Shown: in pieces, positions 3,145-17,908 of the stretch
How positions within the stretch are numbered: the stretch's first letter is position 1
How the letters are laid out: every line of letters begins with the position of its first letter
IMG/VR virus record: IMGVR_UViG_3300037760_000145
Coordinates: 1 to 24,529 of that record
Source of the DNA: a virus
Taxonomy: Duplodnaviria > Caudoviricetes
Length of the DNA: 24,529 bases
Reading direction: 5' to 3' (one strand)
Made by a program: the position numbers and the translations under genes
Notes under the pieces: model-generated
Databases searched by the model: none
Told to the model about the DNA's origin: nothing
Seen by the model: only the letters and a program-made list of their open reading frames with translations

Positions 3145-3896
3145 TCACTAGGCGCCCAGTTCCGGGACGCAATCGCCGCGCGGTCACAGGCGCCGGCGGA
3201 GGCGGCGGAGCGCCATTCCATCCCGTCGACATCGGCGGCTGGACGGAGTTCTGGGACGCGAGCTCGGCGGCGAACACGCTGACGCTATCGGGAAGCGACG
3301 TCATTTCGTGGGAGGGCTCGACCGGGACGCACGATTGGACCGATAACGGCAACTCTGCGCAGCGTCCAGACGCGGCGAGCACGATAAATGGCGTGCGCGT
3401 CGTAAACTTCGACGGCGCTGCGGAGTGGCTGCTTTGCTCGACGATTGATCGCGACTCTCCCGGTACGACGCCCACGTATTACTGGGGCGTCTTTCTGATC
3501 GATGCTGCCTCCAACTTCGACACGCTAGTAGGTGGGCTGGGGGGGGCCAGCCGGATCACCGTTGGCTGCGCAAACACGAGCGGCGATCTCAGTCAGTACA
3601 ATACGACGCAGGCCAACACCAATACGGCGACCACGATCGGCACGCAGTTTCGGCTATACGTCGGTTTCACCAACACGACCGGCGACTTTGTGCAGGTCGA
3701 CGACACGGCGGTCACGGGCTCCGGGTCCGGCAACGTCGATGCGGACGCGGGCTTGTGGTTTGGCTCGCGCGGCGGCGCAGCCAGCACGTTCTTCGCCGGA
3801 AAGTGTGCGTGCTTCGGGGTGCGCGACGCAGCGCTGACGGCCGGCGAAGAGGCGGACCTCAAGGCGTGGGCGATCGCAACCCTCGGGACAGCGTGA
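3141..3896 (+). CDS. LamG/concanavalin-like beta-sandwich virion adhesin
   Basis: Thr/Gly/Asp-rich 251 aa; WDAS...VISW, INGVRVVNFDG and terminal ALTAGE motifs typical of phage LamG-like modules. Confidence 0.65.
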   Translation: MITRRPVPGRNRRAVTGAGGGGGAPFHPVDIGGWTEFWDASSAANTLTLSGSDVISWEGSTGTHDWTDNGNSAQRPDAASTINGVRVVNFDGAAEWLLCSTIDRDSPGTTPTYYWGVFLIDAASNFDTLVGGLGGASRITVGCANTSGDLSQYNTTQANTNTATTIGTQFRLYVGFTNTTGDFVQVDDTAVTGSGSGNVDADAGLWFGSRGGAASTFFAGKCACFGVRDAALTAGEEADLKAWAIATLGTA

Positions 3897-3903
3897 GGCA
3901 CTG

Positions 3904-5367
3904 ATGTTCTCTCGTCGACACCCACGGACGAATCGGCGCGGGATTGGTGCGCCGTCTGGCGCGTCCTCCCCGATCGCACTCGGCGCCTCAGTCTGGGAGG
4001 ACGGCATCTACCTCGACGTCCCGATGCTCGAGCTATCCGACGGCACGGTGCTCTCATCCGCCATCACGCCGCAGGTCGGCAGCGTCGACCTAATCCCCGT
4101 CAACTCGCCAGAGATTGACGAAGTGGGTATTGGTGGGCGGTCTGCGATATGGCTGCCGCAGTCGTCCCTGGCGCACCTCACCGCGCATGCACTGTCGTCC
4201 TTGGTGTCAGGTGACGATAAGCCGCTGACGGTGATCGCGCGTACCAAACGAGACTATCCCACTGGGCAGCGGTCGGTCTTTGGCTTCGGCAATTCCGCGC
4301 AGAGCGCGAACGACTTTCTATACGGCGCCTTTCCAGCAGGGGCTGGCAACTCGCCGACCTTCGTCAAGGATGCGGTCGCGGAAACGCAAAAGGCGATCAC
4401 GCGCACAGGATCGCTGGACTATACCGATCACGTCGTAGCGTTCGTCACCAACGGCACAACCGGATGGATTTATCTCGACGGCGCGGAGGTGGCGACCGAT
4501 GACCTTGATACGCTAGGGATTACGCCCAACCGCTTCGTGGTCGGCGGGCGCCATACAACCGCCGTCCTCGAGCACATGGGCGGATGGATATCGCACTTCG
4601 CCATGACCGGCCAAGCGCTGTCGCCAACACAGATACAGACCGTTACCACCGCATGGCGCGCTGGCGATCTCGGGTACCCCGGGCAGGGCACGGCGATTCA
4701 GTTTTTCGGCGACTCGATCACGCAAGGCGACAGCGACAACGATCCAGCGATCAACAACGCCACGCGAGGCGGCTTTCGTTACAACCTCTTTGAGTGGGCG
4801 CGCGCGAATCGTCTGCGGCTAAACATGGTCGGACACCGCACGCAGGGGATCTTTGCCGATCCGGAGCACAGCTCAATTGGAGGCGCAACAACCGGACTGA
4901 TCCGGGATTACGTGGACACGTACGTGCCGCAGTATGACCCGCGTGCCGTCTTCGTGCTTGCCGGCACCAACGACTCGGATGCGATTGAGGGGGAGTCGAT
5001 GACTCTCGCTGCGTGGCGGGTGATTTACGAAGACCTGTTGGACAAGGCCAGGACGCATCTAGACGCAGTGCCGGGTCAGTCAGACGGGCGTATCATCGTA
5101 GCCACGATCACCCCGATTGAAACAGGCACGGCGGGCGCGACGGCGATCGGCGACATGAACACCGAGCTAGTGGACATTTGGGACGACCACGACGCAGCGA
5201 ATTCGACCAAGCCGGCGCTCATTCGTTGCGATTTCCACACCGCGATTGGTGCATGGCACGCCAACAACTTCAAGGACGCCGTCCACCCAAATCACACCGG
5301 ATACTCGCTGCTTGGTGACGAGTTGATCGCGCAGGCTGGGAGCTACCTGGAGAGCATTGCGACATGA
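3904..5367 (+). CDS. LamG-like domain + SGNH/GDSL hydrolase (tail spike / surface-polysaccharide deacetylase-like)
   Basis: SGNH blocks: FFGDSITQG, HSSIGG, LAGTND, DAVHPNHTGY. N-terminal half has LamG-like HVVAFV...IYLDG...ALSPTQI. Confidence 0.85.
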   Translation: MFSRRHPRTNRRGIGAPSGASSPIALGASVWEDGIYLDVPMLELSDGTVLSSAITPQVGSVDLIPVNSPEIDEVGIGGRSAIWLPQSSLAHLTAHALSSLVSGDDKPLTVIARTKRDYPTGQRSVFGFGNSAQSANDFLYGAFPAGAGNSPTFVKDAVAETQKAITRTGSLDYTDHVVAFVTNGTTGWIYLDGAEVATDDLDTLGITPNRFVVGGRHTTAVLEHMGGWISHFAMTGQALSPTQIQTVTTAWRAGDLGYPGQGTAIQFFGDSITQGDSDNDPAINNATRGGFRYNLFEWARANRLRLNMVGHRTQGIFADPEHSSIGGATTGLIRDYVDTYVPQYDPRAVFVLAGTNDSDAIEGESMTLAAWRVIYEDLLDKARTHLDAVPGQSDGRIIVATITPIETGTAGATAIGDMNTELVDIWDDHDAANSTKPALIRCDFHTAIGAWHANNFKDAVHPNHTGYSLLGDELIAQAGSYLESIAT

Positions 5368-5603
5368 GCAGCATCGTTCACATCGTCTTCGTCGCCGCAG
5401 CACTAACAGCGTGCGCCGCACCAACTCCGCCCGGCTGCGACGAGGCCGACCTCGGCCGCATGATGACCGCCGAGCAGGGAGAGCTTGCGTTAGCGTGCGC
5501 TGGACACGGCGTCGACTGTCCCGATCGTGAATCGATCCACGCGAAATGGAAGCTGCGGCGCGAGGACTGGTTCCTCCGATGTGATCCAGGAGCCATGCAA
5601 TGA
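5364..5603 (+). CDS. Small Cys-rich lipoprotein (o-spanin or exclusion-protein candidate)
   Basis: Hydrophobic signal ending in lipobox LTA-C, followed by Pro-rich linker AAPTPPG. Confidence 0.6.
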   Translation: MSSIVHIVFVAAALTACAAPTPPGCDEADLGRMMTAEQGELALACAGHGVDCPDRESIHAKWKLRREDWFLRCDPGAMQ

Positions 5604-5956
5604 GAGCGCCCACACACGCGCAGCTGGCCGAGGTGACCTCGCTGTTACTCGCGCTGTTGGCGGCAACGAACGGCGGCCAGGCCGTGCCGCTGATTCGCGA
5701 TCTGCTCGCGCATCTGAACAAGCTGCCGGGCGCGCTGCCGGTGCTCGTGCGCGCGCTCGAGCTGATGGCAAAATCCAAAGACAAGCTCGACGCCGGCAAC
5801 TGGAAGCGTGCGTTCATGGTTGCGGTGGCCGACTTCACGGCGCGACGTCTTGCCGACGAATGGCTGAGGCTCGTGCCTGTGCGGTTCGCTGGACGACGAC
5901 CGGCCGGGTTGTCGGCGCGTGACTGGGACCTGCTGCGGGAGAGGGCGCACGGGTAA
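5600..5956 (+). CDS. Hypothetical protein with N-terminal hydrophobic stretch
   Basis: 118 aa, coupled to neighbours by ATGA and TAATG overlaps. Confidence 0.55.
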   Translation: MRAPTHAQLAEVTSLLLALLAATNGGQAVPLIRDLLAHLNKLPGALPVLVRALELMAKSKDKLDAGNWKRAFMVAVADFTARRLADEWLRLVPVRFAGRRPAGLSARDWDLLRERAHG

Positions 5957-6069
5957 TGCGACTGCTCGATCTGCTGGTGTTCATCTGTACTGTCACCGGT
6001 GCAGCGGCGTGGCTATTCCTAGGAATTGCCGCGTTCGCCGGTGCATGGGACTGGCTCAGGAAGAGGTAA
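5956..6069 (+). CDS. 37-aa single-TM membrane peptide (holin/antiholin-like); not in ORF track
   Basis: MRLLDLLVFICTVTGAAAWLFLGIAAFAGAWDWLRKR; TAATG overlap with upstream gene; basic C-terminus. Confidence 0.6.
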   Translation: MRLLDLLVFICTVTGAAAWLFLGIAAFAGAWDWLRKR

Positions 6070-6072
6070 CCA

Positions 6073-6225
6073 ATGTCACTCGTTGCAATGATTCTCCTTT
6101 CGGTGTGCTCGATCATTCTTGGCGCGATCGGTCCCAAGCCAACCGGCTGGGTCGTGACGGCGCTCGCTACGCTGGCCTTGATCCTGATCGTGCTCGGCGG
6201 TTTCTCTGTCCAGATCGGGAAGTGA
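6073..6225 (+). CDS. 50-aa two-TM membrane protein (holin-like); not in ORF track
   Basis: MSLVAMILLSVCSIILGAIGPKPTGWVVTALATLALILIVLGGFSVQIGK; GAGGT SD upstream; immediately precedes a predicted hydrolase. Confidence 0.65.
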   Translation: MSLVAMILLSVCSIILGAIGPKPTGWVVTALATLALILIVLGGFSVQIGK

Positions 6226-6234
6226 TACGGAGTC

Positions 6235-6834
6235 GTGACCGAGCTCGACCCAGGCTACCGCGTGGCTCTCGTAGCGCACGAGTTCCTCGACCCTGGTCCG
6301 GTCGGCGACCTCTACCGCGGCGACGAGTACGAGCGCTTTCTTGACGATGCGTTCGGCAACGGTGCGCAGCTGCGAAAGGTGCGCACGAGCTGCGCCGTCT
6401 TCGCGGCCGCGAGTCTGATCCATGCGGGCGTGCAGGGTCCGCGTAAGTGGCCTGCGCGGCCCGCGATCACGACGTGGTTAGGCGTGCGTGGGTTTGTCGA
6501 GGACGACCCGGACACGGATCTGATCGAGGGCGCATGGATCCCTGAGGGCGAGGCTACCCCTCAGGCGGGGGACGTCTTTTACATCTGCTCGACCGCCGGG
6601 CGCATGTCGCTCGGAGGTGGACAATTCTACACGTGGACGCGCTGGCAGGACGCCGCGAACGGCCACGTCGGCATTCTGATCGACGGCGCTGGCGCCATGT
6701 GGACTACAGGCGAAGGCGGCGGAAGTCCAGGCGGCACCATCTGCAGGCGCAGCGAAGGACACAAGAACATCTACGAGATGAGCCGAACGCTGCGCGGCTT
6801 TTGGCGACCGTCACTCATGGAGCCACGGACGTGA
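6235..6834 (+). CDS. CHAP/NlpC-P60-like cysteine peptidoglycan hydrolase
   Basis: TSCAVFA (catalytic Cys), PQAGDVFYI, GHVGILI (His), TGEGG (Glu) occur in canonical CHAP order. Confidence 0.65.
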   Translation: MTELDPGYRVALVAHEFLDPGPVGDLYRGDEYERFLDDAFGNGAQLRKVRTSCAVFAAASLIHAGVQGPRKWPARPAITTWLGVRGFVEDDPDTDLIEGAWIPEGEATPQAGDVFYICSTAGRMSLGGGQFYTWTRWQDAANGHVGILIDGAGAMWTTGEGGGSPGGTICRRSEGHKNIYEMSRTLRGFWRPSLMEPRT

Positions 6835-7154
6835 GCGAGTACGACACCGACATCCCGCCGGACACCAATCCGCACCCCGACCCGCCTCCGTACGAGGAGG
6901 AGACCGGCGAAGATTTGGCCGCACGCTTCGCGCGCATCGCGGGCAACATGGTGCGCGACTCGATTAGTCCGGTGCGCACTGAGACGGCAGAGCTTCGCTC
7001 AGAGCTGCGTGCGTTGGTGGCGCTGGCGCAAAAGATATTCGACGAGTTCCACGCGCTCAAGTTCGAGCTGGGCAAGCGAGTTGACGCGGTCGAACGGCGA
7101 TTGACCGCAGCAGAGCTGGAGATCCTGGCGATTAAAGATCGGCTGGGAGGCTGA
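6831..7154 (+). CDS. Coiled-coil protein with acidic Pro-rich N-terminus
   Basis: GTG start overlaps upstream stop (GTGA); heptad pattern in C-terminal half. The track start at 6633 is likely too long. Confidence 0.6.
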   Translation: MSEYDTDIPPDTNPHPDPPPYEEETGEDLAARFARIAGNMVRDSISPVRTETAELRSELRALVALAQKIFDEFHALKFELGKRVDAVERRLTAAELEILAIKDRLGG

Positions 7155-7155
7155 C

Positions 7156-7413
7156 GTGCACGTGCCTTGGGAAGCTGTCGTGGCCGTAGCTAGCGCGGGG
7201 GTTGGAGTGATCGGCACTGGGATCAAATGGGTATTTGATCGTTTCGATCGGCACCAGAAGGAATTCATTGCGGCCCTGAAAGACATCCAGGACCGCGAGG
7301 AAGTGCGACGCAAGCAGCACCTTGACGACACGCGCACCTATGCCGAGTCACTGCGCGATCTGGCAGCACAGGTACGAGCCGATTCGCGCCGTCCACCACC
7401 GGGGTCACGATGA
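7156..7413 (+). CDS. Holin-like protein (N-terminal TM + charged coiled coil)
   Basis: GGAGG SD; hydrophobic AVVAVASAGVGVIGTGIKWVF; directly upstream of the GH25 lysin. Confidence 0.6.
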   Translation: MHVPWEAVVAVASAGVGVIGTGIKWVFDRFDRHQKEFIAALKDIQDREEVRRKQHLDDTRTYAESLRDLAAQVRADSRRPPPGSR

Positions 7414-8192
7414 CTATTCGCGGCGTAGATGTGTCCTCACATCAGCAAGCCAGCGCGATCAACTGGCAAGCACTGGCTGAGACGCACCAGTTTTTGATCG
7501 CTCGTGGAACGTACGGCACGCGGCCCGACTCGCAGTGCGCGGCGCACGTGGAGTGTGCGCGAGCGGCTGGTCTCGTGACGGGTCTTTATCATTTTTTTCG
7601 GCCGGGCCAGCCTGTCGCAGATCAGCTAACCGCATTCACTGCAGTGGCCGATACCCTGAGTGTCGACTCGTCGTGGATAGTGCCAGCGCTCGACCTCGAA
7701 GCTAACGAGCGATACGACGGACCGTTCAGCGCGGAGCGGTACTCGGAGCCGTGCTGGACGATCGCGGAGTTTCTCCAGCAGCGATACGGCGGATGTCTGA
7801 TCTACATCAATCCGAGCGACTGGCGTACGCTAGGACGGCCGGGCTGGGTGTTGAGTCATCACGTGTGGCTCGCGCAATGGGGAGTGCGTGAGACCACCCC
7901 GGATCTGCCGTGGGCTATTTGGCAGCACAGCGTCGCAGCACTGCCCGGCGTGTATGCCAGTCCGATCGATCAAAATGTAGCGCGTGCACCGCTACCGCTC
8001 GTTACCACCCCGGAGGTCGTGCCGGATGAGGACTGGGAGGTCGACACCCAGGTCACCCGGGCCGCCCTGACGGCGAGCGCACAGCAGCTGCGTGACGCAA
8101 TGGCTGAGGTGCGGGAGCTCGAGCTGCCGCGGGACCGAGCGGCCGAGATGACCGACCGAGACAAAGACGTGAGGGAGCGAGACGATGATTGA
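7410..8192 (+). CDS. GH25 lysozyme (endolysin)
   Basis: GVDVSSHQ, GLYHFF, ALDLE (DxE), WLAQW, WAIWQHS and IDQN motifs of GH25 muramidases. Confidence 0.9.
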   Translation: MTIRGVDVSSHQQASAINWQALAETHQFLIARGTYGTRPDSQCAAHVECARAAGLVTGLYHFFRPGQPVADQLTAFTAVADTLSVDSSWIVPALDLEANERYDGPFSAERYSEPCWTIAEFLQQRYGGCLIYINPSDWRTLGRPGWVLSHHVWLAQWGVRETTPDLPWAIWQHSVAALPGVYASPIDQNVARAPLPLVTTPEVVPDEDWEVDTQVTRAALTASAQQLRDAMAEVRELELPRDRAAEMTDRDKDVRERDDD

Positions 8193-8793
8193 CGCACTAG
8201 CAATCGCACTGACCGCCGTGGCGACGTCGCTGCCGGCGCCGGCAGTACCTGACGGCAGCCCGCTCTACGAGGCGCCACAGGCCCGCCAGGAGCGGCTGGC
8301 AGTGGTCGCGGTCGCAGTGGCGGCAGTGGCTACCAGGGCGCGCTGTGAGCCGCCGTGGGACGGGTCTGGGTGTCGCCCGCTGTGGCCCGGCTCGAGTGTC
8401 GAGCTCGCGTCCGTGCTGCTCGCGCTGGGCCATTTGGAGTCGGGATACGCCTGGCACGTCCATGCCGGTAGATGCCGGACAGCCATCGGGGAATGTGACG
8501 CCGGCCGGGCCCGGTCTCCGTGGCAGGTCCAGCGCACGCTGCACACTGCGTGGGCGTGGGACGAGATCGAGGGCACCGGCTCGTGGAGCACGTTCGCGGC
8601 GGCGTGGAGTGCTGCTCGCGTGGCCGCCGCTGGGAGACGATACTGCGCATGGTCCGCTCCTAGCGAGCCGTGGCTGGAGGCGACCGTCAGTGCGTACGCG
8701 ACTGGTGGACGGTGCAGGTATCCGCGGGCCCAGGCGCGGGCGAGGTTTGTGGTCTCGATCGAGGGACGGATCCGAGCTGCGCTCTCCGACTGA
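8185..8793 (+). CDS. Secreted lysozyme-like / lytic transglycosylase-like protein
   Basis: N-terminal signal-like segment; LLALGHLESG (catalytic Glu-Ser), DAGRARSPWQV (resembles GLMQ motif) and SAYATG (resembles AYNxG motif); several Cys. Confidence 0.6.
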   Translation: MIDALAIALTAVATSLPAPAVPDGSPLYEAPQARQERLAVVAVAVAAVATRARCEPPWDGSGCRPLWPGSSVELASVLLALGHLESGYAWHVHAGRCRTAIGECDAGRARSPWQVQRTLHTAWAWDEIEGTGSWSTFAAAWSAARVAAAGRRYCAWSAPSEPWLEATVSAYATGGRCRYPRAQARARFVVSIEGRIRAALSD

Positions 8794-8797
8794 CGGC

Positions 8798-8974
8798 CTA
8801 CCCCCGGCGAACGCCGCTGCGACTGCGCCCTTTCGCCGCCCGGTCCGCCACGCGCCTCAGCCACTGAGTCAGCGTCAGATCCTCCGCCTGCGCGGCAGCT
8901 TGCCAGCGGCGGAGCTGCTCGGGCTCGGCGTTCAGGTGCAAGCGTCCGGTGTCGGGGTTGACGGGGCGGGCCAT
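8798..8974 (-). CDS. 58-aa ribbon-helix-helix-like DNA-binding protein
   Basis: MARP...RLHLNA (beta strand), EQLRRWQAAAQAE (helix), LTLTQWLRRVAD (helix); TAATG coupling to the upstream gene. Confidence 0.7.
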   Translation of the reverse strand: MARPVNPDTGRLHLNAEPEQLRRWQAAAQAEDLTLTQWLRRVADRAAKGRSRSGVRRG

Positions 8975-9195
8975 TAGCGGGGCTCTCCCTCGACCGTCAC
9001 ATAGACCCACGCTAGCTCGCGGTCGTCGTGATCTGGCGCCCACGAAGCCTCCACGCCGCGCGAACTCAGCGCCGCACACAGTCGCAGCGCCAGGTAACGC
9101 GGGAGCGCGGTGTCCAGTGCTCCGTAGCCGTCCAGGTGGACAGTGTCCAGCGCCAAGCTGGCCAGCTCGGCGTGCAGGATGTGGCGCGCGATCAC
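8974..9195 (-). CDS. 73-aa hypothetical protein
   Basis: GTG at 9195 overlaps the stop of the 9192-9455 gene (GTGA); its own stop overlaps the RHH start. Confidence 0.6.
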   Translation of the reverse strand: MIARHILHAELASLALDTVHLDGYGALDTALPRYLALRLCAALSSRGVEASWAPDHDDRELAWVYVTVEGEPR

Positions 9196-9455
9196 GACGC
9201 CACCGCGCTGTCCGGCGTCCAGCCCACAGGCATCTCCTCGACGTCCGTGTGCCCGGCGCACCAGTGGGAGTATGCGTCGCTACTGATCTGCTCGTCGTCG
9301 CTGTCCAGGTAGTCACATAGTTCGGCAAGCTCGGCTGCGGGGCACACGTACCAGCGGCTGGTTTCGTCCGCGTAGTAGGCCCAGGTGCCGTCCCCCAGGT
9401 CCGTGGCGTCGATGTGCTTGGCGGCTCGCTCGGTCTTTGCTGTCGTCGTTGTCAT
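9192..9455 (-). CDS. 87-aa acidic, aromatic-rich protein (anti-defence candidate)
   Basis: 18 D/E versus 4 K/R; first gene behind a consensus-like promoter. Confidence 0.7.
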   Translation of the reverse strand: MTTTTAKTERAAKHIDATDLGDGTWAYYADETSRWYVCPAAELAELCDYLDSDDEQISSDAYSHWCAGHTDVEEMPVGWTPDSAVAS

Positions 9456-9490
9456 GATCCCAATATAGCCCATACAATGGGCCTTGTCTA
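9456..9490 (-). promoter_or_regulatory. Sigma70-type promoter with palindromic operator in the spacer; leaderless
   Basis: Minus strand reads TAGACA-17 bp-TATATT-6 nt-ATG; spacer contains GCCCAT-N3-ATGGGC (9468-9482). Confidence 0.8.
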
Positions 9491-9617
9491 GCCTTCGACT
9501 GTCGATTCCTGTACGATTTTCCCGACGGGGCTAACCGTGCGAATCCGTTGGGTTTGCGGCTCCGCCACCGCGAATCTCGGCGGCGCGCTCGCGGAGTCGC
9601 CGCGCGAACGAGCCGCA

Positions 9618-10178
9618 TCACATGAATTCTCCGCATTCGCCGCACTGGGCGGAGCCGGCGGAGCCGCCACCAAAACCGAAGACGTGCCCGCCACCTGCGC
9701 ACCGGTTCTCCGTGGCACGTTCCCAGCGCAGCTTTATCTGCTGCGGGTGAGTATCCACTCGGGGCCGACCGTCGCGCGACCACGAGCCGCCACCGGCCTC
9801 GCCGACGAGTCGCCAGCCCGCAGCGCGCAACGACGCCCCTCCCTCTTCGGGTAGCGTGTAGGTGACGAGCCGTCGGTATCCCATGGCTCGCGCCGCCCGC
9901 CAGCAGGCGGAGTATAGCAACGAGCAGGCGTTCCGCGTACCGTCTGAGCACAAGCGCGTGACCTCTGCGGTGTAGTCGTCGTCTAGCATTCGGGAAACGG
10001 GCCGCCCAACGATGGCGACGGCGACGATGGTGTCGCCTGCCGCGGCGCCTATAGCGAACAGGCCGCCCTGCGGCGCTCGATGGTGCCGGTGATTCTGCGT
10101 CACGTAGGCGCGCGCCTCTCGCAAAGTCATCGGCACCACGCACAGCGCTCTAGTCTGTTGCAAGCTCTCACTCCCCAT
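9618..10178 (-). CDS. XF1762-like / Mom-related GNAT-fold DNA modification protein
   Basis: HRHH, VAIVGRPVSRMLDD, EVTRLCSDGTRNACSLLY, LVTYTLPEEGGASLRAAGW, KLRW. Confidence 0.8.
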   Translation of the reverse strand: MGSESLQQTRALCVVPMTLREARAYVTQNHRHHRAPQGGLFAIGAAAGDTIVAVAIVGRPVSRMLDDDYTAEVTRLCSDGTRNACSLLYSACWRAARAMGYRRLVTYTLPEEGGASLRAAGWRLVGEAGGGSWSRDGRPRVDTHPQQIKLRWERATENRCAGGGHVFGFGGGSAGSAQCGECGEFM

Positions 10179-10181
10179 CGC

Positions 10182-10481
10182 TCACTCCTCCCCCGCAGCG
10201 CGGATCTCTTGTTCCAACTGCTCAATGCACCCACGCATGACGCCGACGATTGCTTGCTGCGCTGCCGCGCGGATCTCGATGTGCGGACCTGGCGGCGTCG
10301 GCAGCGCGGCTACTTCGGCGGCCATATACCGCAGCCGCTTGACGACGTCGAGGCGGGCTTCCGTGAGTCCCTCGCGGTCCAGCTGCACGTTTCCGCATTC
10401 GGCACAATCGGAGCACCACTTGCACATGTCACCAATGTAGTAGCTAGCGCTTCGCAGTGTTTCGCAATCGGTGTCAGTCAT
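10182..10481 (-). CDS. Hypothetical protein with CxxCxxCxxC cluster
   Basis: Start at MTDTD with GGAGG SD; CKWCSDCAEC. The track's N-terminal extension looks off-frame. Confidence 0.6.
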   Translation of the reverse strand: MTDTDCETLRSASYYIGDMCKWCSDCAECGNVQLDREGLTEARLDVVKRLRYMAAEVAALPTPPGPHIEIRAAAQQAIVGVMRGCIEQLEQEIRAAGEE

Positions 10482-10647
10482 CGTCGGTTTCCTCCCGCGT
10501 CTCGTGGTACTTGCCGCCGCACTGGTCCGGCGTGTGCTCGCTGTCGTCGTTGCATGCGCCGCACGGGCACATCGTGTCTGCCGCTCAGCCATTCCACACG
10601 GCTCCGCAGCGCCAGCAGCGGTAGGGAACTAGCCACCATTCAGCCAT
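10474..10647 (-). pseudogene. 57-codon Zn-finger-like ORF with in-frame TGA at codon 21
   Basis: MAEWWLVPYRCWRCGAVWNG*AADTMCPCGACNDDSEHTPDQCGGKYHETREETDDD; coupled to neighbours at both ends. Confidence 0.6.
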
Positions 10648-10792
10648 CGTCGGCTTCCTCGCCTTCGTCGATCTCCACAGGCTGCTGACACGCGCAGAGC
10701 TTTCGGCCGCCGTACGGGCAGCCACAGTCACCGCAGCAATACACGAGGCCGGCGCCAAAGCAGTCCCCGCAGACCTCCAGCGGCTCACTCAT
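10640..10792 (-). CDS. 50-aa Cys-rich microprotein
   Basis: 8 Cys (CGDC, CCGDCGC, CAC), acidic tail; 8-nt start/stop overlaps with both neighbours. Confidence 0.6.
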   Translation of the reverse strand: MSEPLEVCGDCFGAGLVYCCGDCGCPYGGRKLCACQQPVEIDEGEEADDG

Positions 10793-11111
10793 CGCGCTCA
10801 CCGTGCTCGCGCTCGATCTGGTCCACCGTGCACCACTGGCAGCGGCACCCGGGCCGGCATTTTTCGGGCTGCTCGAGGGCGGTCGTGGCGAGGGCGTCGT
10901 ACGCTGTTTTCCAGTCGCGCGCCGAAACGCCCCTGCCGTACCTCTCGCGCCGGAATGCTTCCGCGAACGGTCGCAACGCAGCTTCGAGCGCGGCAATGCG
11001 GGTGTGGGCGGCGTCGCGCTCATCAAACGCTTGAGCCACCGTTTCCCTCAAGAGGCAGCTAGGAGGCGCGAGCAGGACACCCGGCGCAATCTCGTCACCG
11101 TGCTTCATCAA
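10785..11111 (-). CDS. Hypothetical protein (coiled coil + C-terminal Cys cluster)
   Basis: RIAALEAALRPFA helix common in phage early genes; CRPGCRCQWC. Confidence 0.6.
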   Translation of the reverse strand: MMKHGDEIAPGVLLAPPSCLLRETVAQAFDERDAAHTRIAALEAALRPFAEAFRRERYGRGVSARDWKTAYDALATTALEQPEKCRPGCRCQWCTVDQIEREHGERDE

Positions 11112-11406
11112 TCACCCGTCCCACAAGCTGGAGCATCTGCACTCGCACGTCGCCCGCGTGCCGCTCGCCACAGTGCTCGATTTCGGCAATGTCGAGATGG
11201 GCGGCGTCGCCGTCGCCGTCGCCGTAGCCGTAGCCGTAGCCGTCGCCGTCGCCGGAGCCGGAGCGCTGCCGCTGCAACCACGTGCGCCATTCCTCAGGCG
11301 CTGCCGCGAGGGTCTCAGCCGTGGCTGGGCGCTTGCGGGCCCAGTCCACAGCGTCAACGCACGCGCCCAGCAGGATCAGGATCCAGGCGCACCCTAGGCG
11401 ACTCAC
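11095..11406 (-). CDS. G(D/Y/S)-repeat protein
   Basis: LGAC..AVDW motif followed by SGSGDGDGYGYGYGDGDGD; GTGA coupling to the upstream gene. Confidence 0.65.
   Translation of the reverse strand: MSRLGCAWILILLGACVDAVDWARKRPATAETLAAAPEEWRTWLQRQRSGSGDGDGYGYGYGDGDGDAAHLDIAEIEHCGERHAGDVRVQMLQLVGRVIDEAR
11206..11264. repeat. 6-bp-period coding repeat
   Basis: (GTCGCC)3(GTAGCC)3(GTCGCC)2 GGAGCC GGAGC, encoding GD/GY/GS dipeptides on the minus strand. Confidence 0.9.
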
Positions 11407-11693
11407 CACCACGGCTCATTATCCCAGGTCTTGGATGCCTCGGCGGTCGCGTCGACCACGGCAGTGACGTTCCGCAGCACGATGCGATCGACTGCCGGCG
11501 ACACGCGGGCGCCGCTACTGACGCCTCGCGCTGCCACGCCGAGCACGCCGTGGCAATCTGCTGGCCAGTGGACGATCATGCGCGCGTGTGTGAGCTCGAT
11601 CGTCTCGGTATCGGATGGGTCGGTCGTATTCCCGACGAATACTCCGCGGTGTGCGGTGGTTACTAGGACGGGGCGCTTAGTTTGATTTTTCAC
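11403..11693 (-). CDS. DUF6948-like small beta protein
   Basis: AGGAG SD + GTG; VLVTTAHRGVFVG...LTHARMIVHW...GVAARG pattern. Family name from memory. Confidence 0.6.
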   Translation of the reverse strand: MKNQTKRPVLVTTAHRGVFVGNTTDPSDTETIELTHARMIVHWPADCHGVLGVAARGVSSGARVSPAVDRIVLRNVTAVVDATAEASKTWDNEPWW

Positions 11694-11990
11694 TTGGTCT
11701 CTCCTGTGCGTCGCTCCACGACAATCGGTGTCGGCATCTTCGGCGGCTCCTCTTGCAGCCACTGAGGCATCTCCGGCTCCGGCTCGCTCTCCCCGTTCTG
11801 TTTCTCCTCGTCCATTGCGGCGAGGAGACGTGCGGCGGCAGGCGACAGCGACGCCAGCGCGGCGCAGGCGGTAGCGCTCGGCCAGGTTTTCGGCGGCCCG
11901 CTGCTCGGCCTGCAGGAGTCGCTTGAGCTTTGCAGCGTGGCGGGCGACTTCGCGGAGGGTTGATTCGAGGTCAGAAATCGAATGAGTCAT
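11690..11990 (-). pseudogene. Probable frameshifted helical protein
   Basis: MTHSISDLESTLREVARH... is protein-like to about 11865; the +1 frame then gives ALASLSPAAARLLAAMDEEK...GETK*, whose stop overlaps the GTG of the next gene. Confidence 0.45.
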
Positions 11991-12429
11991 CCCCGTTTGC
12001 CTCTCGCTGCTGTCGCCGTGCAAGCATCTTTCCCTTCAGGCGTTGTTCGAGTGACGCGGTCGCACCAGCGTCGAGCTTCTCCTTGACCACCGCGCCGCCG
12101 GTACGGTTCACCCAGCGCACACGATGCCGCGTGCCGCGCTCGTCGGTCTCGTGCTCGATGACGAGCATGCTCTCGATGGTCCCGATGCCGACTGGATGCG
12201 CGAGGCTTTCGCCGTCCCATCCGGTGTTCTCCAGAGCCTCGAGTGTCTTGTCCTCCGTCTTGGGTGAAAAGTACCCCCAATATGTGATCTCGCGCCCCTC
12301 GTAGTTCGGCGGTGCAAGGATGCGAAACGTGATTGCGATCTGTTCCTTGCCGGTGCTCGTCCTTCCGAGCACGGCATCAACGGCTTGTGCGAGATAGCGG
12401 CCGGGGGGGATAAGGTTGTCGGTGTTCAT
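11971..12429 (-). CDS. Phage ssDNA-binding protein (DUF669-like)
   Basis: IPPGRYLA...STGKEQIAITFRI; acidic-aromatic C-terminus DDSFDF; follows the Sak4-like gene. Confidence 0.75.
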   Translation of the reverse strand: MNTDNLIPPGRYLAQAVDAVLGRTSTGKEQIAITFRILAPPNYEGREITYWGYFSPKTEDKTLEALENTGWDGESLAHPVGIGTIESMLVIEHETDERGTRHRVRWVNRTGGAVVKEKLDAGATASLEQRLKGKMLARRQQREANGDDSFDF

Positions 12430-14039
12430 GCTGCGTGCTCCCTTGTCGTCTGAATCTTGCTGATAATCTTGTCGCGCAGTCGCGCGAGCTTGTGCGGGTT
12501 GCCGGAGTCACGCTGCAAGGCGCTGCGTGCAGCCTCCTGCGAGTCCTCTGGTAGCTGCTCGATGAGCGCCGCCGTCTCTGCTTCGAGCTCCGCTGCTGCC
12601 GCGGGAATTCCCCGCCGCGCTGCTGCGTCGAATTCCGCCCAATCAAGCGGCAGCTCCTCCGGCAATCCGTATCGGTTCTTCGCGTGCCGCGCCGGATGCG
12701 GCTGGGTGTATACGACACGCGAGCCGTCGCCAATCGCCTTGTTTTTGTCGTTGTCGGACTTGTTGAGAAATACTCGGTAGTTCGCGAAGAGCACGGCGTT
12801 CGGCCACGCGCGGAGAAGCTGCGCTGACTTCGCGTTCATCTGCAGCTCATACACGTCGTAGCCGTCCGAGGTCGGGTCATCGAAGTGCCTAATGTGTGCG
12901 TGTGCGAGCACCAGCGTGTGCATGCCGGCGGCGTGGAGCTCCTCGAGCCGTACGAGCAGCCAGCGGATCTCCTCGCGTGCACTGTCGTAGCCCTTGCCAT
13001 AGCCGAAGTCCGAGATGGCGGCCTTCCCGCCCTTCTTGCAGACGGCTTCCCAGATGAGCCCCTCGACCCAATCGGCCGTGTCGATGACGACCGACTTGTA
13101 GTCGTGCTTCTCCGTCTGCAGCGCGGTCACCGCGGCTCTGACGTCTTCCCAGCTGGAGAGTCCGGGGAATCGTGCCGTGTCGATCCGGTTCGTTCCGCGC
13201 GGCTCGCCGACGAAAATCGGGTTCGGTGCCGACGCTGCCCACGTGCTTTTTCCGACGCCTTCGGGGCCGTAGAGGACGACCGAATACGGCTCCTCCACGA
13301 TCCCGCGCGTCACCGATGCGAGACTAATTGCCATTGGTTCATGCTCCTTTTGCATGGATGCTCTTATTGCGCGATAGCCGCCGCAGACGTCCCGCGCGCG
13401 GCAGTAGCAGCGATCACAGTGATCGCCGGCGCGTGGAGGCGTTTCCTCACGCAGCCAGTCGAGATGCACGCGACGCATCTCCGATGCCGTCTCCTGCAGC
13501 TGGTCTGGCGAGATGTCTGCCGCGTCAGGCGTGACCGCTCCAGTCTCCGTCACGTAGTGGTATTCGATGTGCGCGCGCTCGATGCCTGGCCACGCGGACG
13601 CAAGCACGACAGCTCCGCCACGTAGCTGCCAGCTATCGGCCGCGGAGTGGTAGCGGCGCCCCGTCTTGTGGTCGACGACGTACAGTACGGGGCCGTCTCG
13701 CCACGCAACGTCAAGCGAGCCGCATATCTCGTCCGCCTTGCCGCCGTGCTGCACATACTCCCTCTCTATATCGTGTCCGAGCACGCGCCCTCCGCGCTCC
13801 GGGTGCCACGCGACAGCAAGCTCCACGTGCGCACTTGCGGGGATGCGGTCACGGACCCTCGACCACCATGTCTCCACGTCTGGCGCATCTGTCGGCGGTG
13901 CCCGGAAGCGGATGGTTCGCGCGGCCTGCGCGTGGAATTCCGTGCCGCGCGCTGCAGCCGAGCTGCGCTTTTCTGGCGGGAGGTCCAGTGCGAAGCTGTG
14001 TAGGCAATGTACAGCTAGCTCGAGCTTGCTCAGCGTCAT
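12426..14039 (-). CDS. PD-(D/E)XK Cas4/RecB-like exonuclease fused in frame to Sak4-like AAA_24 ATPase
   Basis: N-terminal: C, GTEFH, GSLDV, VVDHKTG, WQL, CDRCYC...C. C-terminal: YGPEGVGKS, VVIDTADW, GYGKGY, AKNRYGLP. Start at 14039 inferred from ATGA coupling. Confidence 0.85.
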   Translation of the reverse strand: MTLSKLELAVHCLHSFALDLPPEKRSSAAARGTEFHAQAARTIRFRAPPTDAPDVETWWSRVRDRIPASAHVELAVAWHPERGGRVLGHDIEREYVQHGGKADEICGSLDVAWRDGPVLYVVDHKTGRRYHSAADSWQLRGGAVVLASAWPGIERAHIEYHYVTETGAVTPDAADISPDQLQETASEMRRVHLDWLREETPPRAGDHCDRCYCRARDVCGGYRAIRASMQKEHEPMAISLASVTRGIVEEPYSVVLYGPEGVGKSTWAASAPNPIFVGEPRGTNRIDTARFPGLSSWEDVRAAVTALQTEKHDYKSVVIDTADWVEGLIWEAVCKKGGKAAISDFGYGKGYDSAREEIRWLLVRLEELHAAGMHTLVLAHAHIRHFDDPTSDGYDVYELQMNAKSAQLLRAWPNAVLFANYRVFLNKSDNDKNKAIGDGSRVVYTQPHPARHAKNRYGLPEELPLDWAEFDAAARRGIPAAAAELEAETAALIEQLPEDSQEAARSALQRDSGNPHKLARLRDKIISKIQTTREHAA

Positions 14040-14197
14040 CGGGAGCACAGTCCCTCCAATCGCCGGTGCGCGTGCTCGAGCTGCGCGTCTGTCGGCAGTC
14101 GCGTTGCCCATCGTGCGCCGGGGTATTTCTCCAGGGCCGCGATCGAGGCGGCTAGCGCGTCCTGCAGATCGCGCGACTTGGCCACGATTCGGATCAT
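14036..14197 (-). CDS. 53-aa hypothetical protein; not in ORF track
   Basis: MIRIVAKSRDLQDALAASIAALEKYPG...; ATGA-coupled on both sides; GAGGTG SD. Confidence 0.6.
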   Translation of the reverse strand: MIRIVAKSRDLQDALAASIAALEKYPGARWATRLPTDAQLEHAHRRLEGLCSR

Positions 14198-14448
14198 GAC
14201 GGCACCTCGCTATCCCGCAGCGCGCGCTCGGTCGAGTAGTGCGGCTCCAGAGCAGCGTCGCCCGTAAGCGCTACCCGTGCGTCGCGTGCCGCGCTCGTAA
14301 CGTCTGGCGCCCATGCGATCGTCTGCGAGCAGCCCGGCGTCGGACACTCGCCGATTTCCAGATCTAGATCGGGCCACGGCCGCACGTTGCGCAGCTCGGT
14401 GACGTAGCGGCGGCAATGGCCGCACCAATGGTAATGGCTAGTACGCAC
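14194..14448 (-). CDS. Zn-ribbon protein
   Basis: CGHC...CPTPGC; GGAGG SD. Confidence 0.6.
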   Translation of the reverse strand: MRTSHYHWCGHCRRYVTELRNVRPWPDLDLEIGECPTPGCSQTIAWAPDVTSAARDARVALTGDAALEPHYSTERALRDSEVPS

Positions 14449-14668
14449 GGGGGACCTCCGTAGTTCGCTCGAGCGCGCGCAACAGTCGCTCGATGGCCTC
14501 TTGGTGCGCGGTCACCTCGGCGGTCAGGTCGACCTGGTCGAGGCGGCGGCCGTACTGTCGGCGCCGTACCGCGGACTGGTAGCGCGTCCACTCAGACCGC
14601 AGCCACGCGACCAGTGCGCCCTGGCAGACGCCGGTCAGATCGTGCGGGACCGGGACCGGAGGACTCAC
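14438..14668 (-). CDS. 76-aa hypothetical protein
   Basis: GTGA-coupled start; helical C-terminus. Confidence 0.5.
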   Translation of the reverse strand: MSPPVPVPHDLTGVCQGALVAWLRSEWTRYQSAVRRRQYGRRLDQVDLTAEVTAHQEAIERLLRALERTTEVPRAY

Positions 14669-14922
14669 AGCGTCACCGCCAGTCGCACGGCGTCGACCAG
14701 AGCCAGGTGCCTGCCGAGGCACCGCCCGCAAATCAGCCACGGCTCGCCTCCGTGCGTCTCGCCCCACCGGTGCTCCGCGCCGTCCGCTCCACAGTCGGCA
14801 CAGCCCTCAGGCTCCGGCTCATCCGAGCAGTCGTGCGGCTCGCTCGCGTGGTAGAGTTCGTCGCAGTCGGGGCAGGATTGCCAGTGGTAGTTCCAGTCGT
14901 CGGGGACGTTGGACCAGGTCAT
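14665..14922 (-). CDS. 85-aa acidic Zn-finger protein
   Basis: CPDC...HDC and CADC...CGRC; GAGGAG SD; ATGA coupling. Confidence 0.65.
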   Translation of the reverse strand: MTWSNVPDDWNYHWQSCPDCDELYHASEPHDCSDEPEPEGCADCGADGAEHRWGETHGGEPWLICGRCLGRHLALVDAVRLAVTL

Positions 14923-15161
14923 TGTCCGCTCCTCATTCGGAGGTATCGCTGCGCTACCGCCGTCGCTCGCCGATGCCGGCCGCACGGCGCGCCGAGGTCG
15001 CAGCCGTCGTCGGTGCACGGGCGGCCCATCAGCCGCATACCGATCGCGACGAACGCAGCGCCCTCCGTGTACTTGCCGTGCGCGATAGCCCAGGATTCGC
15101 CGGTGAGACGCGGGTCGCTCCACGGGTCGAGATTGGCTGCGGTCGGGCTGGTCGGCGTCAT
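14919..15161 (-). CDS. 80-aa first gene of the leftward early operon
   Basis: Directly behind the PL-like promoter; C-x3-C-x5-C-x2-H motif. Confidence 0.6.
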   Translation of the reverse strand: MTPTSPTAANLDPWSDPRLTGESWAIAHGKYTEGAAFVAIGMRLMGRPCTDDGCDLGAPCGRHRRATAVAQRYLRMRSGQ

Positions 15162-15197
15162 ATGAGGTCAGTATAATAATACTGATGGCTTTGGCAA
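15162..15197 (-). promoter_or_regulatory. PL-like promoter with palindromic operator
   Basis: Minus strand TTGCCA-16-TATACT-8 nt-ATG; perfect inverted repeat TCAGTAT-N4-ATACTGA at 15168-15185. Confidence 0.75.
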
Positions 15198-15239
15198 TAG
15201 AAAAAGCGCTGGCCAACGGCGAGCGCTTTATCAGTGGGG

Positions 15240-15575
15240 TTATTGCGCGGTTTTTGATGTTTTCTTCAGACGGGCCCGGCGCTCCTCGTAGTCCAGGCGC
15301 TCTTGCTCGATTGCCCACGCTCGACCGCCCCGTTTCTCCCACCACTCCAGAGCGGTGTTCACCAGCTGTCCGGGGTCTAACCCGAACAGTGGAGCAATCC
15401 TGATGGCGGTGGCCAGGCCAGCCCGCAGATGCCCATTCCTGAGCTGGGAAATGTGTCCCTGACCGATGCCGGTGCGCTTCCTCACCTCGCCCTGCGTGAC
15501 GCCACGGCGCTCTTCTTCGAGCAGCCGATGTCGGATGTACCAGCCCACCGCATCCCCACGATCGTCCTTCGGCAT
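15240..15575 (-). CDS. XRE-family HTH repressor (CI-like), 111 aa, no S24 peptidase domain
   Basis: VTQGEVRKRTGIGQGHISQLRNG...IRIAPLFGLDPGQL; divergent from the cro-like gene. Confidence 0.8.
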   Translation of the reverse strand: MPKDDRGDAVGWYIRHRLLEEERRGVTQGEVRKRTGIGQGHISQLRNGHLRAGLATAIRIAPLFGLDPGQLVNTALEWWEKRGGRAWAIEQERLDYEERRARLKKTSKTAQ

Positions 15576-15610
15576 ACCGTCAGCGTCCCGATCTCGCGGT
15601 GATTTCGCAA
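15576..15610 (-). promoter_or_regulatory. Weak PRM-like leaderless promoter
   Basis: Minus strand TTGCGA-17-GACGCT-6 nt-ATG; no SD. Confidence 0.45.
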
Positions 15611-15637
15611 GCGGTCTTGGTGCCGTGGCGATTTTGG

Positions 15638-15671
15638 TTGACCGTCTCATCAGGATTATTATGCTCATAAC
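15638..15671 (+). promoter_or_regulatory. PR-like leaderless promoter with second operator copy
   Basis: TTGACC-16-TATGCT-6 nt-ATG; TCAGGATTATTATGCTCA (15650-15667) matches the PL operator at 15/18. Confidence 0.75.
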
Positions 15672-15941
15672 ATGACCCCAGGCAACGGTGCGCAGAAGTT
15701 CAGCGACTGGATGGAAAAGTGGCTGTCCCAAGACAAGACGCACACGAAGAAGCTCCTCGCGGACCGGCTCCGCGTGTCCCCGGCAGCAATCCACCAATGG
15801 GCGAAGGGGTACACCACTCCGCTTTGGCCCGTGCGCGAGGATATCGAGCGCGAAACTGACGGCGTTGTAACGTGCGAGGACTGGGGGCCAACGAACGACC
15901 GTCGGAAGCCAATCGACGGAGCGGATGGTAAGTCGGCATGA
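15672..15941 (+). CDS. Cro/YdaS-like HTH protein
   Basis: LLADRLRVSPAAIHQWAKG...P...IERETDGVVTCEDW. Confidence 0.8.
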   Translation: MTPGNGAQKFSDWMEKWLSQDKTHTKKLLADRLRVSPAAIHQWAKGYTTPLWPVREDIERETDGVVTCEDWGPTNDRRKPIDGADGKSA

Positions 15942-16047
15942 GGCGTCAGGGTCTACGTGCCGTCGTGACTTCGCAAGGGACGACGGCTTGCACCCGGACA
16001 GGGAATGCCACTGTCCGAAAGTGGACAGGGGTGAAGGGGTCCTCCGC

Positions 16048-16164
16048 ATGATCCGCCGCACCCTCCGCCGCCTAATCGACCTCGCGACGACCCTCCGTCA
16101 CGCCTGGCGCGAAGGTCGCCGGTGGCGGCGTGTGCTGGCGGCAGCGGAGGGGGCGGAGGCGTGA
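16048..16164 (+). CDS. 38-aa basic peptide
   Basis: MIRRTLRRLIDLATTLRHAWREG...; stop overlaps the GTG of the next gene. Confidence 0.4.
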   Translation: MIRRTLRRLIDLATTLRHAWREGRRWRRVLAAAEGAEA

Positions 16165-16706
16165 GGGTGGGAGCCGTGAACATCCTCGAGTGCTTCGCGG
16201 AGCTGTTGAAGGCCACCGCTCCGGTGCCGCCAGGGATGCTGACTCTGAAAGAGTTCGCTGCTCGCATCGGCGTCAAGTACGGCACCGTAAAGCGCTGGGC
16301 CGGCGAAGGCATGCCCGTTTTTCGGAGGGTGAACCCTGCAGGCAACCCTCTCGTAAGAGTCGACTTTCGGGCTGCAAAGAGCTGGGTTGATGCGCGCCAG
16401 CTGAGGCCAGGCCGCGGGCCACGGGTCGCCGTCAAGCGAAGCTCGGAGGTCTACTTCGCTCATGACAAGCGCCGATCGATGATCAAGATCGGCTTCTCGT
16501 CGGATCCGGAGCGGCGAGTGCGAGAACTGCGCAGAGCCAGTGATGGCGGGCACATCGTGAAGCTCATTGGGACGATGCCCGGCGACAAGGTGACCGAGCT
16601 TCGCGTTCACGGGATGTTCTCCCATTTGCGGATTGAAACCGAGTGGTTTCGCGCGGCTCCCGAGCTGTTTGAATTCATCGAATCGTTGCGCAAGGCGGTC
16701 GCGTGA
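16161..16706 (+). CDS. Xis/MerR-like HTH fused to T5orf172-type GIY-YIG domain
   Basis: LTLKEFAARIGVKYGTVKRW; VYF...IKIGFSSDPERRVREL...E..VH..F...R...EWF. Confidence 0.8.
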   Translation: MRVGAVNILECFAELLKATAPVPPGMLTLKEFAARIGVKYGTVKRWAGEGMPVFRRVNPAGNPLVRVDFRAAKSWVDARQLRPGRGPRVAVKRSSEVYFAHDKRRSMIKIGFSSDPERRVRELRRASDGGHIVKLIGTMPGDKVTELRVHGMFSHLRIETEWFRAAPELFEFIESLRKAVA

Positions 16707-17068
16707 CCCTTCTAACCCGCATCGAAGCCGCCGCCTTCTGCCGCGTTTCCCCGCGCGCTTTCGACGTGCACGTACGTCCAGGGTTGACCGAGCGCCGCGT
16801 TGGTAGGCGAGTGCTCTTTCTCCGCCAGGAGCTGGAGCAGTGGGCCGTCACCCCGAAGGCTGGAAACTCCGGCAGCGTGCGCCGGGCTACTCGTACACCG
16901 TCCGTTTCACACACGGTGGCCACGAGTACCACCGATCCTGCGGCACAGCAGATCACGAGCAGGCTTCGCGCGAGGCGGCGCGCATCTACGCGGACATCGT
17001 TAACCGAGAACCGGGAGTTCGACAGCGGCGCGGCAGGCGAGAGCATCGACCGCTCGAGGAGCTGTTAG
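16703..17068 (+). CDS. xis: Excisionase (HTH_17-like)
   Basis: LLTRIEAAAFCRVS...RVGRRVLFLRQELEQW; directly upstream of and overlapping int. Confidence 0.75.
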   Translation: MTLLTRIEAAAFCRVSPRAFDVHVRPGLTERRVGRRVLFLRQELEQWAVTPKAGNSGSVRRATRTPSVSHTVATSTTDPAAQQITSRLRARRRASTRTSLTENREFDSGAAGESIDRSRSC

Positions 17069-17907
17069 GCAAATGGCTGGCCTCAGCACCGTTCGACCCC
17101 GGCACGAAGAAGACCTACGAGGTCTATGCCGGTGCGCACTGGCTCCCGCACTTCGATGCGATGCACCACGTCACGGACGGAATGTGCGCGGAGTACGTAC
17201 GGGCACGGCTTCGGTCCGTGCGCGCGCAAACGGTGCGGAAGGAACTGACGGCGCTGCGGGCGTTCTTGCGCTGGTGTCAGGAGACCGGCGAACTGGAGCG
17301 CGAAGTGACGGTGCCGAGCGTGCCGAAGAAAGCGGCGGGCGTGGCCTACGAGAAGCGACGACGCTCGGCTGCGATTGCGATCACCGAAGCCGAGGCGCGG
17401 CGCATGCTGAAGCTGTTGCCGGAGTGGAGCTCCAGCCGGAAGGTGAAGCGCTTTCCGATTCGCGGGAGATTCGAGTTTGCCTACGAGACGGGGCTCCGGC
17501 CCGACACCATAGACCAGCTCAGCGTGCCGGAGCACTGGGACCTCGGCTCGAAAGTTCTGCGCGTATCGCTAGATGTAGACAAGAACGCATGGGAGCGGGA
17601 GTTGCCGTTATCTCCAAGGGCGCTGCGTGTGCTCAAGAAAGTGGCGCCGAAGAAAGGGCGCATCTTCGGGGCGCACGACTACCGGTCGCACATCCGCGCC
17701 GCGGCCGAGGGAGTGCTCGGGAAGCAGCGTGCGAAGCAATTCACCGGCGCACACTTCCGATCGGCGACGGCGACGCATCTGCTACAGGGAGGCGCAAACC
17801 TGCCCGGCGTGCAGTTCCTGCTCGGGCACAAGCGCACCACGACCACGGCGCGCTACGTTCGCCCGTCGTTCGATGCTGCTCGCGACGCGCTGAAGAAGCG
17901 CCGTTGA
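16840..17907 (+). CDS. int: Tyrosine integrase
   Basis: TGLRPD (R), DK, HFRS (HxR variant of HxxR), LLGH, ARY catalytic set; N-terminal arm-binding-like YTVRF...YHRSCGT. Confidence 0.92.
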   Translation: MGRHPEGWKLRQRAPGYSYTVRFTHGGHEYHRSCGTADHEQASREAARIYADIVNREPGVRQRRGRREHRPLEELLGKWLASAPFDPGTKKTYEVYAGAHWLPHFDAMHHVTDGMCAEYVRARLRSVRAQTVRKELTALRAFLRWCQETGELEREVTVPSVPKKAAGVAYEKRRRSAAIAITEAEARRMLKLLPEWSSSRKVKRFPIRGRFEFAYETGLRPDTIDQLSVPEHWDLGSKVLRVSLDVDKNAWERELPLSPRALRVLKKVAPKKGRIFGAHDYRSHIRAAAEGVLGKQRAKQFTGAHFRSATATHLLQGGANLPGVQFLLGHKRTTTTARYVRPSFDAARDALKKRR

Positions 17908-17908
17908 G

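Follow-up and report, generated by a model that had tools for sequence, protein, structure and literature searches.

A 24,529-base virus record, analysed here over its full length (hereafter the window), carries at the end of a leftward gene block three small overlapping genes. A first-pass annotation had read them as a stand-alone operon of acr-aca-like architecture, with an operator-containing promoter, two candidate novel anti-defence proteins and an RHH autoregulator. The locus raises two questions, namely whether these genes form an independently regulated unit and what the two proteins encoded ahead of the regulator do. Here, we examine the promoter and the genes of this cassette, compare its first gene with relatives at other loci, and weigh the roles that its cargo may play.

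Scanned with Pfam and PHROG, 48 selected ORFs gave the window a temperate-phage layout. These scans identified a GH25 endolysin (7410-8192, plus strand); the leftward gene block, which includes an exonuclease-Sak4 fusion and a Mom-like gene; CI-like and Cro-like HTH genes facing apart at ~15.2-16.1 kb; and, to the right of the CI/Cro region, replication, methylase and terminase genes. The cassette closes the leftward block, with 4 nt between its end and a converging plus-strand ORF (8185-8793). Its upstream neighbour, lying outside the cassette, encodes a Mom-like XF1762-family DNA modification protein (9618-10178, minus strand; phrog_1384, 9e-39; NF045478, 6e-61). Within the same block, a single 561-aa ORF (12426-14111, minus strand) joins a PD-(D/E)XK exonuclease to a Sak4-like annealing ATPase by Pfam and PHROG matches; no phage record reached 80% coverage of this ORF, phage matches stayed below 60% identity, and genome contigs gave no confirmed relative. 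The sole match in an Rfam scan of the window is a tRNA-Leu(GAG) (17908-17992, minus strand), which lies on the opposite strand to the surrounding genes and within a 385-aa ORF as called (17073-18230). A GroES-like co-chaperonin gene (23395-23733, plus strand; Pfam/PHROG) stands immediately 5' of the large terminase gene.

The cassette is read from the minus strand. Its promoter is present as annotated at 9490-9462, pairing a -35 hexamer TAGACA (9490-9485) with a -10 hexamer TATATT (9467-9462) across a 17-nt spacer, and the spacer contains the palindrome GCCCAT-TGT-ATGGGC (9482-9468), the predicted operator of the third gene. This promoter is the sole T.GACA-N16-18-TA...T match in the window and one of five promoter-like sites in 5000-24529, where 50 shuffles give 2.3 +/- 1.6. 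When the 53-nt promoter is shuffled 300 times, a palindrome this long turns up in 3.7% of cases (P = 0.037), and perfect palindromes with 6-bp arms number in the dozens across the window; taken alone, the palindrome is a modest signal. The window holds no second perfect copy of the operator, the sole site within two mismatches being 14309-14323. An operator scan of viral contigs returned 17 matches, none of them in a comparable promoter and 13 within the coding sequence of a gut-phage repressor. The palindromes at 9468-9482 and at the CI/Cro switch are unrelated in sequence, in line with the earlier description of the cassette operator as distinct from the CI type. At that switch, an 18-bp palindrome in two copies (15168-15185 and 15650-15667, 3 mismatches) lies over the leftward and rightward promoters and is a probable immunity operator.

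The ATG of gene 1 begins 6 nt past the -10 box, giving a predicted leaderless start at 9455. Because transcription usually begins at this distance from a -10 box, the cassette mRNA is probably leaderless, and the first 22 nt of the gene 1 transcript are predicted to be unpaired. The ATG (15161) behind the leftward CI/Cro promoter likewise lies a few bases past its -10 box. A search for intrinsic terminators flanking the cassette, the 128-nt upstream gap included, was negative, so that read-through from upstream into the cassette is possible; the description of a stand-alone operon thus holds for its own promoter and fails for insulation. On the opposite strand, a promoter-like TTGTCA-18-TACAAT (9449-9478, plus strand) overlaps the cassette promoter. 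This site would transcribe antisense into the Mom-like gene and may be a chance occurrence.

The three translationally coupled genes have the sizes, composition and overlaps originally reported. Gene 1 (9455-9192) encodes an acidic protein of 87 aa and pI ~4, with 18 D/E against 4 K/R and with 4 W and 5 Y. Gene 2 (9195-8974) starts at a GTG that overlaps the end of gene 1 as GTGA and encodes 73 aa, and gene 3 (8974-8798), overlapping gene 2 through TAATG, encodes a basic protein of 58 aa and pI 11.8. In all three, GC at the third codon position (GC3 0.81-0.86) exceeds that at the second (GC2 0.47-0.58), which supports these frames, unlike two overlapping alternative ORFs. No RNA run is listed as containing the stretch; the one DNA run that does covers it in a single piece and may be its source.

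The last of the three is the predicted autorepressor. Language-model (Atlas) features of gene 3 place it with CopG, RHH_1, RHH_5, ParG, HicB and NikA-type clusters (0.91-0.93), with 160-166 shared features, slightly below the level typical for same-family matches. Its sequence follows the pattern of a strand (RLHLNA), a helix, a turn and a helix, flanked on each side by about ten residues. From these features we infer, on sound grounds, that gene 3 is RHH-like. No HMM in Pfam or NCBIfam scored above its curated cut-off, TacA1 reaching only E = 0.088. None of 56 candidate stretches in viral contigs was a relative of gene 3, a word-seeded search of 5.8 billion proteins returned only gene 3 itself, and similarity to the RHH protein of one gene 1-family locus (L014) was not detectable (E = 0.11). 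With no detectable close homologue of gene 3, guilt by association from the RHH side had no starting point.

Gene 1 has 38 close homologues, and its family comprises 435 clusters at 50% identity (E <= 0.001). We inspected the best 150 of the 435, drawing member statistics from 181 sequences and conservation from 180 aligned members. A [YF]SxWC motif is present in 169 of the 181, and residues Y62, S63, W65 and C66 of gene 1 are 97-99% conserved across the alignment. Searches of Pfam, PHROG, NCBIfam, PADLOC and the PDB gave no match to gene 1, nor did phage and plasmid record collections, and there was no usable Atlas match; at the level of the family, 133 members searched against Pfam and 84 against PHROGs gave no meaningful family match. 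Four sequence hints were rejected, RNF146 WWE (E = 0.46) and a designed repeat protein (0 passing stretches) for gene 1, and OCRE and DUF6607, each from a single member, for the family. Among the titles and abstract starts returned by literature searches, none describes the family, although supplements may list the domain. As judged from sequence, the family appears to be widespread and undescribed in family databases. In genome collections, the closest relatives (71% and 69%) come from MAGs of Myxococcota and Deltaproteobacteria, respectively, and 2 of 401 Myxococcota genomes contain a match.

The structural model of gene 1 (pLDDT 88.6) consists of a helix, three strands and three helices (alpha-beta3-alpha3), with a short C-terminal helix. 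Fold searches gave no match in BFVD at E <= 0.001 and best Z scores of 3.6 among 48,161 chains and 3.0 among 772, a result that does not show the fold to be novel. A homodimer prediction scored 0.00, which counts neither for nor against a dimer.

Beyond the solo form, 71 of the 181 family members bear at least 40 extra residues, which sort into a few shared modules, found at either flank of the domain, and 49 singletons. Another small module without a description, marked by MPxxxRxSHxAAGNxG, is often fused to the gene 1 domain (seen in P0041, P0042, P0057, P0090 and P0092, and at loci L012 and L018) and is a candidate cargo family in its own right. A protein of 3,300 aa (P0123) contains eight gene 1-domain matches (joint E = 3.8e-15, each weak at 2.7-25.6 bits), eight PxWWxP motifs and no YSxWC, together with an additional module in two copies, 17 repeated linkers (NRR-type, VNRR-x-LP-like) and a C-terminal SSB domain. 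The linker may be cleaved by a protease to release the individual modules. These repeats, linkers and SSB domain fit the layout of polyvalent proteins, which with their LPD domains have been proposed to act early in invasion, as far as the available text of that study goes (Iyer et al. 2017, PMC5512222). Like the domains described in that text, the gene 1 domain occurs alone, fused in varying order and in many copies, and P0123 is the one case in which a domain that also stands alone lies inside a large multidomain protein. Unlike those in the same portion of PMC5512222, the solo gene 1 domain sits in a regulated cassette, and no Pfam LPD model matches the gene 1 family or P0123.

We compared the surroundings of gene 1 relatives with those of control genes. 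The relatives gave 38 distinct loci (L001-L037, L040), reduced to 30 after eight duplicates or near-duplicates were dropped, and 46 of 49 loci of similar GC around Mom-like genes (three duplicates dropped) served as controls. Using an ad hoc promoter score over the 350 nt upstream of the gene 1 domain, we found a promoter-like site in 9 of the 23 family loci with sufficient sequence, against 9.4% of background positions; the enrichment held in all six threshold and distance settings (P <= 0.025), and the remaining 14 loci had no promoter match within 350 nt. The Mom-gene loci had such a site in 1 of 44 cases (Fisher P = 0.00015), an easy control because the Mom-like gene usually lies inside operons. 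The ATG was placed exactly 6 nt past the -10 box in 13 of 49 promoter matches in the family and in 1 of 58 in the control. As a single locus (L030) supplies five of these matches, we also counted this spacing per locus, obtaining 6 of 30 against 1 of 46 (P = 0.013). For 14 hand-picked promoters the longest palindrome arms sum to 66, where the null averages 56.5 (P = 0.007), with only two of the 14 individually unusual, and the spacer palindromes of gene 1 relatives vary from locus to locus.

Individual loci illustrate how this arrangement recurs. At L030 (290-4830) a single sigma-70-type promoter, with the spacer palindrome ACGGC-N6-GCCGT, recurs seven times, and most copies precede an ATG 6 nt past the -10 box and a small uncharacterised gene. 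We read this locus as a putative array of cassettes under shared regulation, for which no regulator turned up within the 5.1 kb of locus sequence. L029 has one promoter and palindrome in two copies. There, at 3620-3970, a leaderless-type HTH gene and a gene 1 homologue each stand behind a promoter with the same operator, placing the regulator in a neighbouring operon. A hairpin motif is repeated at L001. The best independent case is L096, which was found through the search with the Mom-like gene rather than with gene 1, and which presents a promoter, a spacer palindrome, a gene 1 homologue and an RHH-like start.

Regulators downstream of gene 1 relatives were sought within 1.2 kb at Pfam E <= 0.05, with L096, whose cut-off gene was added by hand, replacing L040. 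They occur at 6 of 30 family loci, being of HTH type in L006, L012 and L025 and of RHH type in L011, L018 and L096, against 2 of the first 30 controls, a difference that is not significant (P = 0.13); in many cases the family contig runs out in under 1 kb. In a reading by eye confined to the family loci, RHH-like genes are also apparent in L010 and L014 and an HTH-like gene in L023. The regulators that follow gene 1 relatives are thus unrelated RHH or HTH proteins, or are absent, and no fixed pairing was found for gene 1, the gene to which this comparison is confined. Gene 1 relatives repeat the layout with different regulators and palindromes, which supports the initial proposal of an independently regulated unit of promoter, operator, cargo and RHH gene. 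An ArdC-N anti-restriction domain lies three genes downstream in L001, the one locus among 30 scanned with an anti-defence domain; Pfam includes few Acrs. Among the larger flanking ORFs, 11 of 97 (of 117 listed) have a Pfam match, including RecT twice, a resolvase and an SSB, neighbours that are consistent with mobile elements.

Gene 2 is a smaller family by count, with seven homologues at 53-73% identity that share a conserved VEASWAPD motif. It has no match in Pfam, PHROG, NCBIfam or the PDB, and its relatives gave no locus in genome contigs, viral contigs or 301 genomes. The model (pLDDT 91.2) is a small alpha/beta protein of predicted ferredoxin-like fold. The best structural scores, to the ferredoxin-like domains of XcpY/EpsM (Z 6.2, rmsd 2.9, 67 aligned), are tied with those of designed proteins and so reflect a common arrangement, and Foldseek returned nothing at E <= 0.001. 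Nothing in the gene 2 sequence or model points to a function.

We favour the reading, with a probability of roughly one half, that the cassette is a self-limiting early accessory operon that would work in the manner of acr-aca, with the RHH repressor Aca14 as precedent, and whose cargo would probably act against host defence or host functions. That the cassette is real and autoregulated we regard as likely, and a cargo directed against defence or at host takeover as about as likely as not. In such an operon, host sigma-70 RNA polymerase would initiate at the gene 1 ATG to give a leaderless mRNA, from which gene 1 would be translated immediately and genes 2 and 3 by translational coupling. A dimer of the RHH protein would bind the palindrome between -35 and -10 and close the promoter, so that expression would come as a short burst following DNA entry or induction. 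The gene 1 product is most likely a small binding inhibitor, whose conserved aromatic/Cys motif would contact a host protein through Y62, S63, W65 and C66, together with W25, Y28 and W35; an enzyme or a charge-based DNA mimic is less likely. An 80-residue domain that is shuffled, repeated and regulator-swapped behaves as a binding module would. An anti-defence role is plausible, given the one ArdC-N neighbour, the adjacent Mom-like gene and the one polyvalent-type protein. Against the favoured reading count the single, short operator, the lack of an insulating terminator, the non-significant enrichment of downstream regulators, the 14 of 23 loci without a nearby promoter match, the scarcity of recognised anti-defence neighbours and the weak scores of the polyvalent copies. 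Both cargo proteins belong to undescribed families, and the more specific first-pass labels of Acr and DNA mimic are not supported, as set out below.

A somewhat unlikely reading retains the autoregulated cassette and assigns its cargo to the lysogen or to phage competition, in the form of moron-type fitness, exclusion, lysis-lysogeny or an antirepressor-type switch. The window looks temperate, with its CI-like and Cro-like HTH genes, and the cassette promoter, being independent of the CI operator, would stay on in a lysogen. The cassette moreover adjoins lysis genes, and the lysis-gene flank is a common insertion place. The repeated promoters of L030 and the repeats of L001, as well as the polyvalent-type protein, nevertheless fit early-delivered functions better, and no membrane segment is apparent in the sequences or models of genes 1 and 2. 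In the immI arc-ant region of P22, an accessory region of a temperate phage, the small RHH protein Arc represses its own promoter and precedes its cargo, which is an antirepressor. The cassette shares with immI a small RHH protein, here a predicted autorepressor, but its RHH gene comes last. Neither Pfam nor PHROG gives a match to an antirepressor family, which argues against a switch of this kind.

Ocr and ArdA are DNA-mimic anti-restriction proteins that are small, strongly acidic and early. Gene 1 is also small and acidic, and could act as a mimic, obstructing a restriction enzyme or a different defence protein that binds DNA. Its net charge is -14 in 87 aa, the family median is -0.13 per residue with 148 of 181 members at or below -0.05, and the ArdC-N and Mom-like neighbours would suit such a role. 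We consider this improbable, since 16 of the 181 relatives lack an acidic character, being neutral or, as with P0162 and P0037, basic, with values reaching +0.12 per residue, and charge is less well conserved across the family than the motif. In gene 1 itself, 8 of the 14 net negative charges fall within residues 41-60, and positions 54-57 of this acidic loop are gapped in 18-22% of members. The near-invariant residues of the family are Y, S, W and C rather than D/E, so that its constant feature is an aromatic/Cys motif and not charge, and the sequence and fold searches gave no match of gene 1 to Ocr or ArdA.

More improbable still is a genuine acr-aca pairing, in which one of the two cargo proteins would be an anti-CRISPR and gene 3 would encode an Aca. 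The acr-aca-like layout and the small acidic proteins favour it, and an RHH Aca has a precedent in Aca14, which in the accessible part of its preprint is reported, with EMSA and reporter proof, to bind anti-defence operon promoters at an inverted repeat (bioRxiv 10.64898/2026.07.27.740549 = PMC13551039). The same work counts Mom homologues and polyvalent-protein domains among Aca-regulated genes (PMC13551039), and Aca repeats are described, in the part of a further study available to us, as overlapping the core promoter (PMC12658196). As in acr-aca and Aca14 operons, so far as these texts describe them, an inverted repeat lies over the core of a sigma-70-type promoter here, between its -35 and -10, the cargo genes are small, and the terminal gene is a small one that is RHH-like by Atlas features. 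In contrast to acr-aca operons, no known acr was recognised in the cassette or in any family locus examined, and no sequence or fold match links its cargo to a solved Acr. Gene 3 also differs from Aca14 in operator and N-terminus. By eye, the cassette operator is GC-rich with 6-bp arms, whereas the Aca14 probes listed in Table S5 of PMC13551039 are AT-rich with 8-9-bp arms; Pasteurella Aca14 is modelled in the available text with a long helical extension, where gene 3 has about ten residues with two prolines before the strand, too few to accommodate such an extension. The cassette transcript is predicted to be leaderless, and the word "leaderless" is absent from the Aca14 preprint (bioRxiv 10.64898/2026.07.27.740549). 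With no acr recognised and an operator unlike that of Aca14, the cassette is not established as a member of the acr-aca class.

Slightly less probable again is a reverse-order toxin-antitoxin pair, with gene 1 or gene 2 as toxin and the RHH protein as antitoxin. Gene 3 resembles RHH antitoxin domains of the HicB, FitA, ParG and TacA types, and HigB toxin chains appeared very weakly for gene 1 (Z 2.2-2.5, rmsd 3.6-4.8), at scores that lie at noise level. Against such a pair, gene 1 relatives are followed by unrelated RHH or HTH regulators or stand alone before a hairpin (L013, L096), gene 3 offers only some ten residues beyond the RHH on each side, and no toxin-family or PADLOC match was found. 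Least probable, the three genes would be the mere tail of a leftward early operon with promoter and palindrome arising by chance, a view to which the shared strand with the upstream block, the terminator-free 128-nt gap and the palindrome P of only 0.037 lend something, and against which stand the near-consensus AT-rich hexamers in 65% GC DNA, the ATG at +6 and the same promoter-ATG geometry in 6 of 30 relatives.

The layout of the self-limiting early accessory operon is already known, and the novelty lies in its cargo, a family of ~435 clusters built on an 80-residue domain with a near-invariant motif and no family model. We raise, quite tentatively, the broader proposal that gene 1 is the prototype of a widespread, undescribed counter-defence domain of unsolved fold, found in phages of little-studied, GC-rich soil and sediment bacteria, Myxococcota included. 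Such a domain would be deployed in leaderless autorepressed cassettes, as shuffled modules and in polyproteins cut at a linker, with each diverged copy directed against a different variant of a host defence protein. The leaderless geometry provides a sequence marker for such cassettes that is independent of known Aca proteins, and the modules fused to the gene 1 domain become cargo candidates too. The gene 1 family occupies the leading position for early expression, in phages whose hosts have few described counter-defence genes. If gene 1 blocks a defence system, it would bring a further inhibitor fold, not seen before, and serve as bait in the search for more cargo.
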